From: Candidatus Bathyarchaeota archaeon
GTDB taxonomy: Archaea > Thermoproteota > Bathyarchaeia > 40CM-2-53-6
Assembly: GCA_963833125.1 (NCBI GenBank)
Contig: CAWHWX010000029.1
Span: 1 to 12,920, forward strand
Length of the DNA stretch: 12,920 nt
Reading direction: 5' to 3'
Of the stretch, positions 1,406 through 11,241 are shown piece after piece; the first letter of the stretch is position 1, and every line of letters begins with the position of its first letter. The position numbers and the translations under genes are program-made. The notes under the pieces are model-generated. The model saw nothing but the letters and a program-made list of their open reading frames with translations. It had not been told where the DNA came from and made no database searches.

Positions 1406-2968
1406 ATGTCTGCCTCGAAGCGCGAACTTCGGACGCAATACTTGCGGCTCATTGCTGCTAGAATTGCAGCTGTAATTCTGATACTTTTATCGACTGTTAT
1501 CTTCGCGGATGGCGTCATAATGGAATTCGGGCAAATTTTCTACGTCGCCATCGATCTGATCTATTTTGTCGTGTTTTCAACGGTAGCCTTGATCATCATC
1601 ACGCGCAAGTCTGACAATTACATGGTACTTGCGGTGTCTGCAGCTTTGGTTTTGTACGGGACCACCGTTACCACGGGGTTCGCTCGAATCTCCTCCGTGC
1701 TTCCAACGGCATGCTCAGGCCCGGGGATTCTCTGTGTCGGGCCACTAGACTACTGGAGTTTGACGATCAACTTTCTACTCTCCGCAAGTACGGTTTCTGT
1801 CCCAATTCTCGCTTACCTATTCCCAGATGGGAATTTCATTCCTCATTGGACACGCTGGGTTGCTGGGCTTTGGGTCGCATGGGGGTTTCTATCATTATTC
1901 ATCCCACATCTCAACCCTTACAATTGGCCGTTCCAATACCTGGCGTTGCTCTATGTCTTCGGGCTTTCTACCGGGATCTACGCCCAGGTCGTGCGGTACC
2001 GTACCGTTTCGACGCAGGAACAGCGACAACAGACTAAATGGGTAGCATTTGGATTCGCGGCAGCAGGTATCTGTTTCAGTATACTCGTTGCCTTAGTCAT
2101 CTCGATAGCGTCTTTCTTTCCGTCTCTGGTTACCTATTCGTTTACCGAAATTTTCTCCGCAGCATTCCTAGTCTCCCAATCAGTAGTCCCAATATGCATA
2201 GGCCTTTCAATTCTTCGACGTCGTTTGTGGGACATTGATGTGATTATCAACCGCACGCTGATTTATACGCTGTTAAGCGGTTGTTTGTTTCTGCTGTTTT
2301 GGGTCGGTGACAAGGTGCTTGAGGAACTCGTCGGATCCGTTCTAGTCGCGCTTACTGAGTTCTCGAGCCTCTCACGGTACTCTTCACAGTTTTCAGGCGT
2401 TGGCTCCGCGTTGATCGTCGGCAAATCTGTTTCTCCGATACACAAACGAAGCGAGGATTTCATCAACCGAATGTTCTACAAAGACAAGATACATCTTCGC
2501 CGCCAACTTTCGGAATTCGCTCACGAAATTCGCAACCTGAAGAACCTCTCTCAAATATTGAACGAAGTAGTTGAAAGAACCTGTGAACTCTTGAAGATCC
2601 GATGTGGCGCAGTATATCTTAGTGACCCGAGTGGACAACTAAAACTGGCCAAGGCGCTGAACCTACCATCGAAACCCACCCATCTTCCAAAGGACAAAAC
2701 CAGCTTAGGCCATCTCATGGATGGAACCCCAGTCTTCAGGTCAGATGATAAAGTTCTTCCTTTGATTCTACCATTGACTTTGCCTTCGTCAGTCAGTGGG
2801 GAATCGGAGAGTTCTCGGTTGGTTGGCCTCTTTGCTCTTGGCCCCAGAGAATCAGGCATGGGCTACTCTAACGAAGATCAATCGATGTTACAGGAACTTG
2901 CTGACGAAGTAGCCCCAGCGATTTACTTCGCCCGCAAGAAGAAACGGAGAATAAAGAAGCTCATCTGA
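1406..2968 (+). CDS. Multi-pass membrane sensor with C-terminal GAF domain and no output domain
   Basis: About 10 hydrophobic segments with motifs typical of bacterial sensor N-termini (YLFPDGNFIPHWTRW, RQQTKWVAFG, LWDIDVIINRTLIY). GAF-like end (LVGLFALGPRESGMGYSNEDQSMLQELADEVAPAI), then a stop ~15 aa later. Confidence 0.75.
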   Translation: MSASKRELRTQYLRLIAARIAAVILILLSTVIFADGVIMEFGQIFYVAIDLIYFVVFSTVALIIITRKSDNYMVLAVSAALVLYGTTVTTGFARISSVLPTACSGPGILCVGPLDYWSLTINFLLSASTVSVPILAYLFPDGNFIPHWTRWVAGLWVAWGFLSLFIPHLNPYNWPFQYLALLYVFGLSTGIYAQVVRYRTVSTQEQRQQTKWVAFGFAAAGICFSILVALVISIASFFPSLVTYSFTEIFSAAFLVSQSVVPICIGLSILRRRLWDIDVIINRTLIYTLLSGCLFLLFWVGDKVLEELVGSVLVALTEFSSLSRYSSQFSGVGSALIVGKSVSPIHKRSEDFINRMFYKDKIHLRRQLSEFAHEIRNLKNLSQILNEVVERTCELLKIRCGAVYLSDPSGQLKLAKALNLPSKPTHLPKDKTSLGHLMDGTPVFRSDDKVLPLILPLTLPSSVSGESESSRLVGLFALGPRESGMGYSNEDQSMLQELADEVAPAIYFARKKKRRIKKLI

Positions 2969-3039
2969 TTCGCAAACTCTAATATTGGTTCTGACGGTGC
3001 GCGCATCGCAAATTGAACCGTCGTTGTTAGTCGTCAGAA

Positions 3040-3069
3040 GTGTGTGTGGGTCTTTTGGTGCGCACACAC
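3040..3069 (+). repeat. Palindromic repeat R1 (9-bp arms, 12-nt spacer), att-like
   Basis: GTGTGTGTG-GGTCTTTTGGTG-CGCACACAC. Matches the reverse complement of 3611-3640 at 29/30, and 3040-3062 matches 4440-4462 at 21/23. Confidence 0.9.
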
Positions 3070-3121
3070 ACACGAAAAATCCATAATCTCCTCTAGATAT
3101 TTGTGGTTCGAGTGGTTAATA

Positions 3122-3556
3122 GTGGGAGCTTCTTTTCAGGTAACGTTTGACTGCTTGGACCCTGACGGGCTGGCGAATTTTTGGGCGCAGGTATTGCATT
3201 ACAATGTGCAAGATCCACCAGCGGGTTTTGGGTCATGGGAGGAGTTTCTGAGAGCGCAGGGGATTCCGGAGAGTGAATGGAACTCTGCCTCTGCAATTGT
3301 TGACCCTGAAGGAAAGGGTTCACGGGTGTACTTCCAGAAGGTGAGTGAGCCGAAGACGGTCAAGAACCGCGTGCACTTAGATCTTAATGTCAGTGGCGGA
3401 AGGGCAGTTCCTGAGGAGGAGCGCAAGAAGAAAATTTACGCTGAAGCCGAACGCTTGATCGGTCTGAAGGCCACGAAGCTGGATGTCGTTCAAGAGCACG
3501 ACGAGTTCTGGATAGTTATGTGCGATCCAGAGGGAAACGAGTTCTGCCTTCAATAG
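3122..3556 (+). CDS. VOC / glyoxalase-bleomycin resistance family protein
   Basis: FQVTFDCLDPDGLANFWAQVL...FQKVSEPKTVKNRVHLDL...DPEGNEFCLQ. GTG at 3122 is the likelier start, because the called start at 3044 lies inside repeat R1. Confidence 0.9.
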   Translation: MGASFQVTFDCLDPDGLANFWAQVLHYNVQDPPAGFGSWEEFLRAQGIPESEWNSASAIVDPEGKGSRVYFQKVSEPKTVKNRVHLDLNVSGGRAVPEEERKKKIYAEAERLIGLKATKLDVVQEHDEFWIVMCDPEGNEFCLQ

Positions 3557-3610
3557 AAACAGGTAGCCGTCAGACACAACAGAAGCAAATCGTGGTCAAT
3601 GTTTCCAAAT

Positions 3611-3640
3611 GTGTGTGCGCACCAAAAGACCCGCACACAC
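3611..3640 (-). repeat. Palindromic repeat R2, inverted relative to R1
   Basis: GTGTGTGCG-CACCAAAAGACC-CGCACACAC with perfect 9-bp arms. The outer flank ACAACGACGGTT (3642-3653) is also the exact reverse complement of 3016-3027. Confidence 0.9.
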
Positions 3641-3706
3641 TACAACGACGGTTTCACCGAAATCCACAACTTGAAGTTCTATGCATCATAGACATGTGTT
3701 TCTGTA

Positions 3707-4418
3707 GTGCCCCGGATTCCCTTAGTTGACGACTTGACTACCGGAACGGTCCCTTCAGGATCCAATATCTTACTGGAGTTTGCAGGTGCGTCACAATGGT
3801 ATAATGCCTGCCTAGCCATAGCGGCAGGATGGCTTAGGCAAGGCGGAAGCGTAAGCTACAACGCCGCACGTTCGTTTCCCAGACGATGTTCGTTCCAAAC
3901 TAAAGCGAGCGAAACTGAATGTCGAATCGCTTGAAGCGGAGGACAAACTCAGAATCTGGGACTGGTACACAGCCACACTCGGGAAGAAATCCACCGAAAA
4001 ATACGCGTACGACTCCCTGAAGGTCGCCGATCTTAGCATCCGATTTGCACGTGAAGACATGGGCGCAGCCACGTACCAAATCACCGGCTGGATTAGAATT
4101 GCTGATAACATTGCTACGCTTGGAAGGTTCAACGATGAGAAGATTTGGACTGAATTTTTCCTAACTAGAGGTTTCCCAAGTGTTTCATTAAGGGGAAGAA
4201 CAACGACGCTTCATGGCATTCTTCGGGGTATTCATAGTAATTGGGTGTATGAGCAACTCGAAGCCGCGGCAGACGGCGTTATCGACTTGAAAGTTGAAGA
4301 AGTTGACGAGGAAGTCAGCAACCTAATCCGAGTCAGAAACATGCGGGATGTTGAATTCGACTCACGATGGCATCGACTCAGGATCGACGAGAACCTGAAC
4401 ATTACCCTGCAGAAGTAG
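3707..4418 (+). pseudogene. Stand-alone degenerate KaiC-like/RAD55-type ATPase, +1 frameshift near 3875 (or sequencing error)
   Basis: MPRIPLVDDLTTGTVPSGSNILLEF...YNAARSF continues in the +1 frame as PDDVRSKLKRAKLNVESLEAEDKLRIWDWYTATLG..., in frame with ORF 4059-4418 (EAAADGVIDLKVEE...LIRVRNMR). Confidence 0.8.
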
Positions 4419-4439
4419 CCAACGGTCGCCCTTGGTTTT

Positions 4440-4462
4440 GTGTGTGTGGGTCTGGTGGTGCG
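4440..4462 (+). repeat. Half-site repeat R3 overlapping the tRNA 3' end
   Basis: GTGTGTGTGGGTCTGGTGGTGCG: left arm and spacer of R1. The right arm is replaced by the tRNA acceptor stem. Confidence 0.8.
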
Positions 4463-4616
4463 GCCGCCGGGATTTGAACCCGGGCGTCTTCTCGCCCGTT
4501 TTCTGTGCCGGGCGATCAGAAGCGTGGCAGGCTTGCGCCAGCAGATATTCTCTGCTGTTCCCGTCCTAGACCAGGGTATCCAGGCCTTTACGATTGGCCT
4601 TCTAGACTACGGCCGC
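4456..4616 (-). tRNA. tRNA-Gly(GCC) with three introns (4576-4601, 4533-4558, 4486-4516) and encoded CCA
   Basis: Removing the introns gives GCGGCCG UA GUCU AGCCUGGUCUA GGAC G GGAGC CUGCCAC GCUUC UGGC CCGGG UUCAAAU CCCGG CGGCCGC A CCA, a complete cloverleaf. Anticodon at 4526-4528. Each intron is a hairpin inside a bulge-helix-bulge-like motif. Confidence 0.93.
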
Positions 4617-4645
4617 AACCATAAAACAAGAGCGTTGCAACGCCG

Positions 4646-4652
4646 TATAAAA
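4646..4652 (-). promoter_or_regulatory. TATA box of tRNA-Gly
   Basis: TTTTATA on the minus strand, 30-36 nt upstream of the mature 5' end. Confidence 0.55.
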
Positions 4653-4735
4653 CCATAAGCCTATCGGATAAGAAAGGCGGGGTGGCGCTCCATGGTGGGC
4701 ACAAATACAACCACGACAGTTTTCGACGTGAGACG

Positions 4736-5842
4736 TTAGATGTTTTCCGGGTTCAAAGCTTTACGTTTGATTAATCCGTAGGCGATCATCATGAAGATGG
4801 CGAGCATTGCTAATCCAAGAGGATACTCAGGAATCGGAGGAGCGGTAGTAGTTGTGGTCGTAATTGCGGGGTCGCCGAACTTCTGAATCCGGTTATTGTT
4901 CTTGTCGACTACGTACACAGAACCCCCCACGGCTACCCCAAGTGGACCATTGAATTGGCCGTCGCCAGAACCAGACGAACCCCACTTCAATAGGAACCCG
5001 CCTTGGCTGGTGAATTTCTGAACGCGAGCGTTGCCAAAATCGGAAACGTAGACGTTCCCCGAAGAATCAACAGCAATACCACTGGGTCTGTTGAATTCCC
5101 CGTCACCACTGCCGGTCGATCCCCACCCCTTCACGATCCCAAACCCATCAATTGCGCCGGTACGCGTAAACTTGCTTACGCGGTCATTGTTTGTGTCGGC
5201 TACGTAGACGAAGCCCGCGCTGGAATCGATGGTGATGCCTAGTGGGTTGTTGAAGGCACCGTCCCCGCTACCAGTGAACCCCCAACAACCTATGAAAGTG
5301 CCGGTGCTTGTGAAGTATAGGATACGATTGTTGAAAGTATCCGCAACGTAAACGTTCCCTGTACTCGCGTCTACGGCCAGAGCTGCAGGGTCATTGAAGC
5401 CTGGATTGCCGGTGGAACAGCCGTTAGAAGATTCAAAATGACCCCACTTGGTAATGAAAACGCCGGAACTCGTGAACTTCTGTATACGTTGATTGACTTG
5501 GTCGGCGACGTAGACGTTGCCCGAAGTCGGATCTACGGCAACGCCTTCTGGACTGTTGAACTGGCCGTCGCTGGAGCCAGAGGAACCCCACTTCGTAACG
5601 AAGAGCCCGGTGCTAGTGAATTCTTGGATGCGGTTATTGCTAGTGTCGGCTACGTAGACGTTTCCCGAGGAATCAACGGCGACGCCCCAGGGAAAGAGGA
5701 ATTCGCCATCACCAGACCCGCTTGAGCCCCATTTGAGTTCGAATACACAGACGTTGCATCCCTCAAATGCGTGAACAATTGTAGCCGAGGTGCTCATTAA
5801 TGTCACAAGGAGGAGTCCTACCGGAATCATCTTTTTCAGCAT
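4736..5842 (-). CDS. Secreted NHL-repeat (six-bladed beta-propeller) surface protein with PEF-CTERM-like anchor
   Basis: Signal peptide ending VHA, six F-x-x-P-x-G-[VI]-A-V-D...VYVAD..N.RIQ repeats, poly-Thr linker, then IPEYP, a TM helix and KRK. Confidence 0.92.
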   Translation of the reverse strand: MLKKMIPVGLLLVTLMSTSATIVHAFEGCNVCVFELKWGSSGSGDGEFLFPWGVAVDSSGNVYVADTSNNRIQEFTSTGLFVTKWGSSGSSDGQFNSPEGVAVDPTSGNVYVADQVNQRIQKFTSSGVFITKWGHFESSNGCSTGNPGFNDPAALAVDASTGNVYVADTFNNRILYFTSTGTFIGCWGFTGSGDGAFNNPLGITIDSSAGFVYVADTNNDRVSKFTRTGAIDGFGIVKGWGSTGSGDGEFNRPSGIAVDSSGNVYVSDFGNARVQKFTSQGGFLLKWGSSGSGDGQFNGPLGVAVGGSVYVVDKNNNRIQKFGDPAITTTTTTAPPIPEYPLGLAMLAIFMMIAYGLIKRKALNPENI

Positions 5843-5973
5843 TCAATGCGCAGCTCGGGTTTCGGCCCAAATAATCTGCGGTGAACCCAAGCATATATTG
5901 TCTTCTTGTCCAAGAAACCGCGCCAATATGCTTGCCAAAGCTTTCGGGATCAGAGGCTGTTGAAGTAAGAAAG

Positions 5974-5991
5974 CTCGATCTAAGGATCGAG
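5974..5991. terminator. Perfect 7-bp hairpin with T-rich flanks on both strands
   Basis: CTCGATC-TAAG-GATCGAG, followed by GTTGTTTTT on the plus strand and CTTTCTT on the minus strand. Confidence 0.3.
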
Positions 5992-6256
5992 GTTGTTTTT
6001 CTGGTATTGAAGGTTAGACCGCTGGCGGTTGGCGTACCAATGCTACCACCATTCCCTCCTGCGAAGACGATTATGACATCGTTAGGGTTTGAGGTTGTCA
6101 GCGTCGCCGAGCAGGAAGCTGGCTCGAGGCATCTTCGCTTGAGGCTACACCGTCTAGGGTAAGGGTTGGCGGCGCATGAACAGGCAACGGCTCCAAAACC
6201 AAGAAAAACGTAACCAAGACTACTAGTAATCCAAATCCAGCCGTTACACGTCTCAT
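5985..6256 (-). pseudogene. Frameshifted, apparently truncated secreted protein
   Basis: GAGGAG then ATG at 6256: MRRVTAGFGLLVVLVTFFLVLEPLPVHA-PPTLTLDGVASS (signal peptide). The frame shifts near 6130 into SCSATLTTSNPNDVIIVFAGGNGGSIGTPTASGLTFNTRK. The 3' boundary is approximate. Confidence 0.6.
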
Positions 6257-6297
6257 GAACACTCCTCTCACCTTCTAGACTACCATTAGGCTTCAGG

Positions 6298-6349
6298 TAA
6301 ACCGGGTTGTCCAAACCGAGTTATGATCGGTCTTCTAGACTACGGCCGC
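6298..6349 (-). pseudogene. Isolated 5' fragment of a tRNA-Gly-like gene (positions 1-21) with its own 15/16 intron (6307-6334)
   Basis: GCGGCCGTAGTCTAG [AAGACCGATCATAACTCGGTTTGGACAA] CCCGGTTTA. 6332-6353 is identical to 4599-4620 (22 bp). No anticodon or T arm follows. Confidence 0.85.
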
Positions 6350-6375
6350 AACCGAAGCAATCGTAGGCTATAGGA

Positions 6376-10354: not shown

Positions 10355-10771
10355 TTGTTGGATGACGAGCACTTCCTTGACGCTTTTCAAAAGGGGACAC
10401 TTCCCGCTGCTGAATTCAACCACCAAGGTCACTTACGCTTATCCTGGCTAATTCTTCGGCGCGACGGTTTCAGTGAGGGTACCCGCAATATTTCAGAAGG
10501 AATCAAGCGTTTCGCGACGTCAAAGGGAGCTTTCAAGAAATACCACGAGACGCTTACTCAATTCTGGCTGCGGCTCATATTCCACGCAATCGAGACCAAA
10601 CCCGACATCTCCAATTTTGAGGATTTTCTCAACTACTTCCCATTTCTTCGTAGCAAAGTCCTCCCACTGAGACACTGGCGCTCCGAAACCTTGCAAAGCG
10701 AGAGGTCTCGTCAAACGTGGGTTGGACCTGATCTGATTTCACTCCCTTCGATGCGTGCCCATTGTGATTAA
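10355..10771 (+). CDS. Conserved hypothetical protein (F-x-H-x-x-H-L-R...YHETLT-x-FW type)
   Basis: Intact ORF after a GGTGA site. The motif pattern resembles a widespread uncharacterised family, and I cannot assign a function. Confidence 0.7.
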   Translation: MLDDEHFLDAFQKGTLPAAEFNHQGHLRLSWLILRRDGFSEGTRNISEGIKRFATSKGAFKKYHETLTQFWLRLIFHAIETKPDISNFEDFLNYFPFLRSKVLPLRHWRSETLQSERSRQTWVGPDLISLPSMRAHCD

Positions 10772-10831
10772 GCTCTCGCTAAGCATAACCGACAAGCAAC
10801 GCAAGTGCGCGGACTGGCCGAGCAGCTTCTA

Positions 10832-11241
10832 CTATGCCATACCCATCTTAGCCAATTTCTGGAAATCAGTCATACTCTGAACAAGATCTGTTTGACTGAC
10901 TATTCCAATTATCTTATCGTGTTCGGTTACGACCAGCCTTTTCACCTGCTTTTCTACCATCCGGCGAGCCCGTCAATTAGCGGAGCCGTAGCATCAATCG
11001 TGACCAAGGGCGCAGTCATCATCTCTGCAACGGTGACTTTCGATGGATCAGCGGCTCCGGCCACTATCTTGTCAACCAAGTCCCTTTCGGTGACTATTCC
11101 GAAGGGTAAACCATCTCTATTAGCTATCAAGGAGCCGATCCGTTTTTCCACCATTAATCGTGCGGCCTCTCGTGCCTTGGCTTTGGAATCTATCGAAATG
11201 ATCGTTCGCATGATTTGGCGTACGGTGATTTCGGATGTCAA
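10832..11241 (-). CDS. Tandem CBS-domain protein, frameshifted near 10969
   Basis: First CBS: EAARLMVEKRIGSL...GIVTERDL. The second CBS continues in another frame as ARRMVEKQVKRLVVTEHDKIIGIVSQTDLV...MGMA* (stop at 10832-10834). Confidence 0.88.

Follow-up and report, generated by a model that had tools for sequence, protein, structure and literature searches.

Probable casposon junction scars at a tRNA-Gly gene in a genome of the Bathyarchaeia

Why should a short repeat that mimics the tail of a tRNA recur between the genes of a bathyarchaeal contig? The stretch analyzed here, which we call the window, comprises 12,920 nucleotides of contig CAWHWX010000029.1 and holds three such repeats (R1, R2, and R3), which a first-pass annotation had read as the attachment (att) sites of an integrase. 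Its description of the repeats themselves holds up well. R1 (3040-3062) and R3 (4440-4462) are direct copies matching at 21 of 23 positions (91%), and a search of the whole window with the 23-mer, allowing up to 3 mismatches, returned exactly three sites (3040-3062, minus strand, 0 mismatches; 3618-3640, plus strand, 1; 4440-4462, minus strand, 2), with 0 matches in 200 dinucleotide-preserving shuffles. Read on the minus strand, R1 is CGCACCA-AAAGACC-CACACACAC and the tRNA end is CGCACCA-CCAGACC-CACACACAC, which bears out the shared CGCACCA. The annotation was also right that only one arm is present at the tRNA: R3 lacks the left GTGTGTGTG arm and has the tRNA acceptor stem in its place. R1 and R2 are inverted copies, 97% identical over 32 nt, and both form 9-bp hairpins (-10.5 and -10 kcal/mol; z scores of -2.8 and -4.1), unlike R3, which gave no such fold in the same test.

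Assembled read contigs from one run, X1, which may be the source sample, bridge R1 (2855-3194) and R2 (3552-3702) without differences. The read-derived data are short Logan contigs from 2 runs that leave most of 3755-4440 uncovered, and an apparent joint of 3072 to 4440 in the other run, X2, is an artefact of the repeat, one of its sides being 23 nt long. The features of the window around the repeats, several of them built on a 14-bp segment (14-mer), are the following.

2988..3016, minus strand: landing-pad-like unit beside the GAF gene, followed by unique DNA and common to the C18/C6 versions of the locus
3016-3002, minus strand: leader TCAATTTGCGATGCG of this unit, read from the sequence
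3001-2988, minus strand: degenerate 14-mer CGCACCGTCAGAAC of this unit, read from the sequence
3017..3048, minus strand: putative solo end of an element, facing away from the VOC gene and of the same design as the terminal inverted repeats (TIRs) of the Cas1 elements L181 and L183
3048-3040, minus strand: tip CACACACAC of this solo end, read from the sequence
3039-3017, minus strand: ACGAC-rich subterminal stretch of this solo end, read from the sequence
3049..3062, minus strand: R1 14-mer CGCACCAAAAGACC, of the target-site-duplication type
3063..3073, no strand assigned: putative end tip CACACACACAC (plus-strand reading) on the VOC side of R1
3104..3556, plus strand: VOC/Glyoxalase_6 gene, candidate cargo (Pfam PF18029, E value 3.2e-25), start codon uncertain
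3610..3617, no strand assigned: putative end tip TGTGTGTG on the VOC side of R2
3618..3631, plus strand: R2 14-mer CGCACCAAAAGACC, the same as in R1 but inverted
3632..3652, plus strand: KaiC-like cassette, putative left end with tip CGCACACAC and TACAACGACGGT
3692..4418, plus strand: KaiC-like gene, candidate cargo, frameshifted (matches of 57% over 49 aa and 52% over 179 aa)
4440..4448, minus strand: putative end tip CACACACAC right after the R3 14-mer, where homology among the locus versions stops
4449..4462, minus strand: R3 14-mer CGCACCACCAGACC
4456..4616, minus strand: tRNA-Gly(GCC) with introns and encoded CCA (Rfam RF00005, 34.3 bits)

The 14-mers of R1 and R2 are thus identical in inverted orientation, and that of R3 differs from them at 2 of 14 positions. 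The annotated pair R1/R3 bounding 1.4 kb is indeed direct, but because of these two differences it is not a duplication pair left by one insertion of 1.4 kb. The N terminus of the KaiC-like protein lies in the frame of 3692-3934 and the remainder in that of 3855-4418. Both window cassettes have terminal tips of only 8 to 11 nt; the interior of the VOC piece lacks ACGAC-rich DNA, and the VOC cassette has no DNA homologue or second copy in 22 genomes of the genus. Homology between the window and C18 ends at 3025.

The tRNA-Gly gene was missed by ARAGORN on the window and by an Rfam scan at gathering thresholds, and was recovered by the Rfam model with permissive filters (4459-4616, minus strand, full model, against a gathering score of 29). 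It has the anticodon loop CUGCCAC (GCC), two insert blocks of 58 and 32 nt, a CCA encoded at 4456-4458, and a T-loop TCAAATC at 4477-4471, or positions -15 to -9 relative to the 14-mer. The 14-mer itself opens with 7 nt of the tRNA: the final three of the acceptor stem, the discriminator A, and CCA. ARAGORN run with introns on the whole genome missed or mis-called multi-intron tRNAs, and its call in the window, a tRNA-Phe with an 1820-nt intron, is spurious. Brute-force intron deletion followed by ARAGORN gave Gly(gcc) as the commonest outcome (91,477 of 519,503), a procedure that is unsound as a test and is not relied on here.

The content of the locus next to this gene is variable. Four locus versions in all (C29, C18/C6, and two metagenome contigs) have the tRNA, the 14-mer, and the tip in common and diverge right after the tip, and a search for related loci with the GAF protein returned only distant bacterial relatives. 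In relatives, the tip is missing behind the orthologous tRNA-Gly at 7 of 13 loci, and the downstream genes are not syntenic. The first-pass annotation had named a fixed ancestral trailer with syntenic downstream genes as fatal to its proposal; the CACACAC trailer is not of that kind. What we retain from that proposal is an insertion junction at R3, placed at the very 3' terminus of tRNA-Gly and clear of the introns; the att crossover we set aside.

The three repeats are not a private att pair but part of a dispersed family. The composite site, GTGTGTGTG / CGCACCA-NNNN-ACC / CACACACAC, occurs in about 60 to 70 copies per genome across one Bathyarchaeia genus. In the genome under study (G000), a 20-mer search with up to 3 mismatches found 52 copies, versus 5 in the reversed genome, and a census gave 60 sites, of which 27 carry the right tip only, 16 the left tip only, and 17 both. 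Sites were found in 17 of 18 same-genus genomes and, outside the genus, in 1 of 12 genomes from the same order; reversed-pattern controls gave 0, and exact matches among 185k species come almost entirely from Bathyarchaeia MAGs. TCAAAT starts at -15 in 13 of the 60 sites, 12 of them right-tip-only, and at any other offset in at most 2; most of the T-arm-type sites have no matching 5' acceptor strand within 400 nt. ACGAC-rich subterminal DNA lies 3' of the 14-mer at 10 of the 60 sites and 5' of it at 6, against a background of 1.3%. A loose landing-pad pattern gave 181 matches, mostly noise, and we kept only those matches that have a tip and ACGAC upstream.

The 14-mers pair up across intervening DNA. 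Adjacent sites in G000 are identical at 14/14 positions in 5 of 32 pairs, versus 37 of 1770 for all pairs; four pairs have direct 14/14 repeats, and the 32 adjacent pairs comprise 20 direct, 6 inward, and 6 outward orientations. A KaiC-like cassette of 0.82 kb in L201 is flanked by direct repeats identical at 14/14 positions, and among 11 KaiC-like cassettes with sites on both sides, 5 have 14-mers that are inverted and face inward.

Cas1 genes occur in 12 of 22 relatives, and larger elements with these ends that carry such genes are seen among them. The Cas1 open reading frames (ORFs) are about 405 aa long, one in L177 having 409, and give E values of 1e-49 to 1e-52 with PF01867; one matches PDB 6opm at 7e-71 over residues 9-403, with the best CRISPR Cas1 at 3e-25; from sequence, this solo Cas1 with a C-terminal extension is a predicted casposase. 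No other cas genes were found among 63 ORFs in five Cas1 neighborhoods, and none of these ORFs (at least 70 aa) matched a PolB or other polymerase family at an E value of 1e-3 or below. Family B DNA polymerase (PolB), which makes the elements self-synthesizing, is a hallmark of described casposons. In L180, an HNH_3 gene adjoins Cas1.

Borders could be resolved for 4 of 11 Cas1 loci. Three of these intact elements (10,965, 8,615, and 7,144 bp) are each flanked by direct 14-mers identical at 14/14 positions and have inverted ends and TTCAAAT in the left flank. CACACAC or CCGCC opens their inverted ends, CGCA opens the 14-mer, and TCAAAT occupies bases 15 to 10 upstream of it, an arrangement shared with published casposase targets; the inverted repeats span 17 nt exactly, and more with gaps, in L183, about 17 nt with a 1-nt offset in L180, and 9 nt in L177. 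Another Cas1 element, that of L181, has 27-nt arms and is flanked by inverted 14-mers. Because Rfam (E value of 0.01 or below) found no tRNA beside the Cas1 elements of L177, L183, and L181, the leaders there may be tRNA look-alikes or missed intron-rich tRNAs. A casposase gene is absent from the window and from the 88%-complete assembly of G000, in which the only trace is a relic of 41 to 46 aa (C1:351565-351751), enclosed by one of the identical adjacent site pairs.

We consider it highly probable that R1, R2, and R3 are casposon junction scars and not classic integrase attachment sites. Since the Cas1 elements of relatives have perfect 14/14 flanks, inverted ends, and a target of the published type, we interpret the 14-mer as the target-site duplication and the GT/CA runs as the tips of element ends. 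The casposase of this genus would recognize a tRNA 3' end, or a sequence resembling one, with the leader TCAAAT 15 to 10 nt upstream; insertion would duplicate a 14-bp segment, CGCACCA-NNNN-ACC, and the element ends would begin with CACACAC or, in a second type, CCGCC. R3 (tRNA, 14-mer, CACACAC) would then be the left junction between tRNA and element. R1 and R2 (GTGTGTG, 14-mer, CACACAC), previously described as full element-side sites, would instead be tip-duplication-tip junctions at which two stacked elements meet. Each of the two genes, VOC and the frameshifted KaiC-like one, could be the single-gene cargo of a non-autonomous mini-casposon or DNA trapped between ends, and an array of cassettes placed by a casposase would have grown at tRNA-Gly. 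With the C1 relic as the only casposase trace, the units of the window are at best non-autonomous or scars, and the array in this genome is probably inactive, given that it has no casposase gene, one relic only, and a frameshifted KaiC-like gene.

Several observations stand against the casposon reading: neither the window nor the 88%-complete assembly has a casposase gene, the 14-mer of R3 is off by 2 of 14, the VOC piece has short tips and no ACGAC-rich interior, the L181 Cas1 element has inverted 14-mers, and the PolB hallmark is missing from the five Cas1 neighborhoods scanned. A further one is that R1 and R2, which share their 14-mer, are inverted relative to each other, a layout that simple insertion would not produce. 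Inverted 14-mers could not be derived from simple casposition, and in our derivation intramolecular replicative transposition yields a different layout. We tentatively suggest, at somewhat less than even confidence, that R2 became inverted when the 1.4-kb block from one outer tip to the other (3063-4448) flipped once; before that event, the AAAG duplications on the two sides of the KaiC-like cassette would have been direct and identical.

Inverted repeats around a variable center can be read in other ways, and we weighed three. In the reading developed from the first-pass annotation, small circles enter the 3' end of the tRNA through a tyrosine recombinase, R3 being a hybrid attL, R1 and R2 attP-like, and the crossover falling within the terminal ~7 nt of the tRNA. 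The site does resemble a recombinase core, with two inverted arms and a center that changes from copy to copy, the target is a tRNA, and the genome has 12 PF00589 matches, the one nearest to any cluster (C28:133234-133731) lying ~5.4 kb from the C28 139-kb sites. We nevertheless judge this account highly improbable: the window encodes no recombinase, most PF00589 matches lie elsewhere in the genome, and Pfam on 150 of 229 repeat-cluster ORFs (79 of L009-L015 left out) gave only one such integrase (L008:3207-4205), inside no cassette and ~5.4 kb from the nearest site. Elements of relatives with these ends encode Cas1 and not an integrase, and they show exact 14-bp duplications and terminal inverted repeats; their leader motif and CGCA start agree with casposase targets. 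What had been taken for an att crossover core corresponds in them to a 14-bp duplication (CGCACCA plus 7 nt) and an end tip. A 13-6-13 tyrosine-recombinase core site and REP-like palindromes were our own first readings of the repeats, and both were dropped after the Cas1 elements with 14/14 repeats were found.

Alternatively, the site could be a self-spreading, free-standing palindrome (REP/MITE-like, or a terminator or regulatory hairpin) whose likeness to the tRNA is incidental or tRNA-derived. It does form an imperfect 32-nt palindrome between genes, often occupying each gap along an accessory stretch (C1 96-104 kb), and the R1 and R2 hairpins fold better than shuffles. Yet 43 of the 60 sites have one arm without the other, which is what halves of junctions should look like but a unit repeat should not, identical centers pair across whole genes and around Cas1 elements, and a second, unrelated arm type (CCGCC) sits on the same center, all of which leaves us giving this account very little credence. 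More can be said for treating the VOC piece with R1 and R2 as one mobile unit, its inverted repeats being the whole 32-nt junctions and the 14-mer part of the end, since R1/R2 are near-identical inverted copies with identical 14-mers, the L181 Cas1 element has the same layout, and inward-pointing 14-mers flank those five KaiC-like cassettes. Outside R1/R2, however, lies again an element end (tip plus ACGAC) pointing away, with no duplication beyond it; the VOC DNA occurs nowhere else in the 22 genomes, leaving no second insertion to show its borders, and inward and outward pairs are equally frequent in G000 (6 and 6), as expected if single 14-mers flipped. We regard such a unit as improbable.

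The junction-scar reading finds close parallels in described casposons. The relatives' solo Cas1 matches best the casposase (PDB 6OPM) of the Methanosarcina mazei family 2 casposons at tRNA-Leu (e.g., MetMaz1FA1A3-C2), and published accounts of that system report a 14-bp duplication that starts with CGCA and overlaps the tRNA 3' end, a target reaching ~30 bp into the tRNA, tandem elements sharing one duplication, and solo TIRs, which adjoin CGCA sites (PMC6977970, PMC4779613). The M. mazei system differs in that the tRNA here encodes CCA, placing 7 and not 4 tRNA nucleotides in the duplication; in the remainder of the duplication (NNNN-ACC here, AT-rich there); in the ends (CACACAC or CCGCC here) and the host; and in the absence here of PolB from the elements examined, many units being one cargo gene of 0.5 to 0.8 kb. 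Targeting by the Aciduliprofundum boonei casposase (AciBoo-C1, tRNA-Pro) is described as dependent on TCAAATC at -15 to -9, with no more than the 5 terminal nucleotides of the TIR being required (PMC6614799); TCAAATC occupies the same position in tRNA-Gly, TCAAAT recurs there in the 13 sites noted above, and the short TIR requirement fits tips of 8 to 11 nt. From the same description, the A. boonei duplication is 14 to 15 bp with a border dinucleotide CC, unlike the CG start here, and AciBoo-C1 is a single 9-kb PolB-bearing element and not a cassette array.

Two other systems invite comparison. The islands work like integron cassette arrays, with single promoter-poor accessory genes, imperfect palindromes between them, and a fixed chromosomal entry point, but they have no IntI-type integrase at the arrays, no attC architecture, and mixed orientations, and their junctions consist of a duplication and transposon tips. 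CRISPR arrays are the evolutionary relative of the mechanism, with a Cas1-family enzyme, leader-dependent entry, and a short repeat duplicated per insertion; new DNA probably enters next to the leader, here the tRNA. Unlike CRISPR spacers, the inserts are genes (0.5 to 11 kb) that bring inverted ends of their own; the repeats measure 14 bp, and there are no Cas2 or effector genes.

Casposons have been studied mainly in Methanosarcina, Aciduliprofundum, and Thaumarchaeota. A literature search on casposons together with Bathyarchaeia, judged by title and the start of the abstract, found no report, and the loci described here place putative casposon activity in soil and peat Bathyarchaeia. They explain a tRNA-tail-mimicking repeat as transposon footprints, and for annotation the sites mark island borders and probable pseudogenes. 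Casposons seem to build variable islands of small accessory genes in these genomes (VOC/glyoxalase-type, KaiC-like ATPases, and others), and the occurrence of elements without the casposon-defining polymerase and of many one-gene units bears on Cas1 integrases acting on short-ended DNA and on the origin of leader-plus-repeat arrays. More speculatively, and in our view rather doubtfully, this genus may keep a casposase-run store of gene cassettes, in which polymerase-less and single-gene mini-casposons enter beside a tRNA-like leader, the 14-bp repeat is duplicated each time, and many ends carry a leader and 14-mer pad that seeds new entry points. If true, the proposed step from casposons to CRISPR arrays would have a living analogue here, and integrons a Cas1-based counterpart.

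The repeats that copy the tail of tRNA-Gly(GCC) are most probably junction scars left by casposons, transposons inserted by a Cas1-family integrase (casposase), at a tRNA-Gly target. The window is the entire 12,920-bp contig C29 of a Bathyarchaeota genome (G000; 3.07 Mb in 39 contigs, completeness 87.8%, contamination 7%) and contains the following features:

1406-2968: GAF-domain membrane protein
3040-3062: repeat R1
3104-3556: VOC gene (PF18029, 3e-25)
3618-3640: repeat R2, inverted relative to R1
3692-4418: KaiC-like gene, frameshifted
4440-4462: repeat R3, direct relative to R1
4456-4458: encoded CCA of the tRNA-Gly
4459-4616, minus strand: tRNA-Gly adjoining R3 (34.3 bits, anticodon GCC, two long inserts)

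R1 and R3 share 21/23 positions and R2 matches R1 at 97% across 32 nt (window repeat search); with ≤3 mismatches allowed, the 23-mer has these three sites alone in the window and none in 200 shuffles, so the direct repeats first reported at the tRNA tail are real. The tRNA was seen by neither ARAGORN nor a default Rfam scan of the window and was recovered with the Rfam tRNA model under permissive filters. Each repeat contains a CGCACCA-NNNN-ACC segment (the 14-mer), which we read as a target-site duplication, and a CACACAC/GTGTGTG run (the tip), which we read as an element end. Read outward from the tRNA, the 14-mers run +, -, +; those of R1 and R2 are identical but inverted, and that of R3 differs at 2/14 positions. 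Bacterial proteins were the nearest relatives that a search with the GAF-domain protein recovered (Ktedonobacteria/Chloroflexota, Rubrobacter, Paenibacillus; ~25-35% identity), which suggests that this gene beside the array may have been acquired.

The R1/R3 repeat is a dispersed family rather than a private pair. Its 20-mer core occurs in 52 copies at ≤3 mismatches across the whole genome, against 5 in the reversed genome, and their profile has ~32 conserved positions, (GTGTGTGTG) CGCACCA NN AGACC CACACACAC, with the two central positions free. A looser rule gave 60 sites (right CACACAC arm alone, 27; left GTGTGTG arm alone, 16; both, 17), which are clustered, some stretches having a site in each gap separating small accessory genes. 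The pattern recurs in 17/18 other genomes of the genus and 1/12 from other families of the order, with no match to the reversed pattern in these genomes. Exact matches in one genome per species (185,579 species) numbered 69 stretches, nearly all from soil or peat 'Candidatus Bathyarchaeia/Bathyarchaeota' MAGs, plus a small number of short contigs assigned to bacterial bins. Two other readings of the repeat, a REP-like palindrome and the core site of a recombinase, were set aside in favour of the casposon reading. TCAAAT starts at -15 in 13/60 sites, 12 of them in the right-arm-only class, and in at most 2 at any other offset. Beyond the tip, ACGAC-rich subterminal DNA is found in 10 cases on the 3' side and in 6 on the 5' side of the 14-mer (60 sites; background 1.3%), as inverted ends at both sides predict. 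Identical 14-mers occur in 5/32 adjacent site pairs versus 37/1770 of all pairs, four of the five being direct; one of these direct pairs (C1:349732/352831, on contig C1) surrounds the only trace of a casposase in the genome, 41-46 residues from its C-terminal tail.

Two further versions of the locus in the same genome (contigs C18 and C6) are 92-98% identical to the window in three blocks:

up to 3025: GAF gene
4440-4620: tRNA, R3 14-mer and tip
from 6321 on: ars genes

Window 3026-4439 (R1-VOC-R2-KaiC) corresponds in C18 to 856 bp that carry a different KaiC-like gene together with a 56-nt solo end and a further 14-mer, and two metagenome contigs share the tRNA end, 14-mer and tip before two other, differing continuations. 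In all, four locus versions diverge at the tip. The first-pass annotation was right about the insertion junction at R3 and about the mobile cassettes. Relatives do not show a fixed ancestral CACACAC trailer with syntenic genes downstream: of the orthologous tRNA-Gly genes in 13 relatives, 6 have a core-like trailer behind them and the other 7 unrelated DNA, and synteny of the flanking genes among relatives was found solely for the ars operon, in one. In two of these seven, CCA is succeeded by (T)CAGACA, which makes the CCAGACC half of the 14-mer look native and CACACAC foreign.

That the ars operon - tRNA-Gly - GAF locus occurs three times within one MAG (the window contig C29, C18:122-132 kb and C6) reflects either mixed strains or true paralogy. 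A 1.7-kb segment (4621-6320) encoding an NHL-repeat secreted protein (4736-5842) and a 183-aa ORF is missing from C18 and C6; direct copies of the tRNA-Gly 5' end (33 nt, 91%; 4588-4620, 6321-6353) bound this segment, which contains no recombinase. The 183-aa ORF opens with a ~100-nt stretch (6153-6262) that has 74-80% copies in C32 (4 places), C28:109348, C26 and C18:187 kb, perhaps a signal-peptide region common to them or a further repeat.

The direct repeats had originally been attributed to att-type recombination, a reading that Cas1 elements in related genomes speak against. Cas1-family genes were detected in 12/22 relatives and not in the G000 assembly. Their ORFs are ~405 aa, and one aligns from end to end with PDB 6opm (7e-71; best CRISPR Cas1, 3e-25), the casposase of Methanosarcina mazei (PMC6977970). 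The 63 ORFs in five Cas1 neighbourhoods included no other cas genes and no DNA polymerase; an HNH nuclease adjoins Cas1 in one of the five. Borders were read in 4 of eleven Cas1 loci (three clear, plus locus L181). The three elements with clear borders (10,965, 8,615 and 7,144 bp) are each flanked by perfect 14/14 direct 14-mer repeats (CGCACCAGCATACC, CGCACCACTATACC, CGCACCAGCTGACC), their left flanks contain TTCAAAT, and their inverted ends begin CACACAC or CCGCC; in the L181 element the inverted ends are good, but the 14-mers are inverted too. At loci L180 and L183 of relatives and at C5:90362 and C1:352831 of G000, ends of the second type, (CCGCC)n, sit at the 14-mer target that the CACACAC type also uses, and two casposon lineages therefore have a target in common. 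In the 11-kb casposon of L180 (relative G014), the casposase is immediately followed by a gene for a TIR-domain protein (10396-11157; PF13676, 3e-19), possibly cargo with a role in defence.

The target also resembles those of published casposons. In M. mazei (PMC6977970, PMC4779613), the duplication is 14 bp with a conserved CGCA start and takes in the final 4 bp of tRNA-Leu, ~30 bp of the tRNA are required in the target, and solo TIRs lie beside CGCA sites. The 14-mer at R3 likewise begins CGCA, but it includes 7 nt of tRNA-Gly, because CCA is encoded. The Aciduliprofundum boonei casposase (PMC6614799) requires a TCAAATC leader at -15 to -9 and just the last five TIR bases; the window tRNA-Gly carries TCAAATC (4477-4471) at exactly this position. 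From this fit to published targets, three site classes follow:

R3 and tRNA look-alikes: leader + duplication + left end
R1, R2: right end + duplication + left end
third class: right end + duplication + unique DNA

R1 and R2 are thus not the full element-side sites proposed in the first-pass annotation.

The KaiC-like gene is one of a large family of ~235-aa genes. Of 24 copies examined, 11 lie between two sites (direct in 4, inward in 5 with the window copy among them, outward in 2), and one 0.82-kb KaiC-like cassette has a perfect 14/14 direct duplication. No DNA homologue of the VOC gene turned up in 22 genomes of the genus. A single inversion of the block from the R3 tip to the R1 tip could tentatively account for the observed layout, starting from a regular array in which identical duplications in direct orientation would have flanked the KaiC-like cassette; such flips might be mediated by the short 9-11 nt tips or hairpins they form. 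Inward and outward site pairs number 6 and 6 in the genome, as flipping of single 14-mers predicts.

At no fewer than 10 places in the genome, a tip and ACGAC stretch leads directly into a leader-like TCAAAT + CGCACC unit. These units (tip + ACGAC-rich stretch + TCAAAT leader + CGCACC 14-mer) include:

C4:66585
C11:5787
C32:23300
C39:135
C18:126877
window 2988-3048

Several then run into unique or element-specific DNA. This arrangement suggests that element ends may carry their own landing pad. The array in G000 looks inactive, because the assembly has no casposase, a cargo gene is broken and the ends are degenerate. The four locus versions show turnover in the population's recent past.
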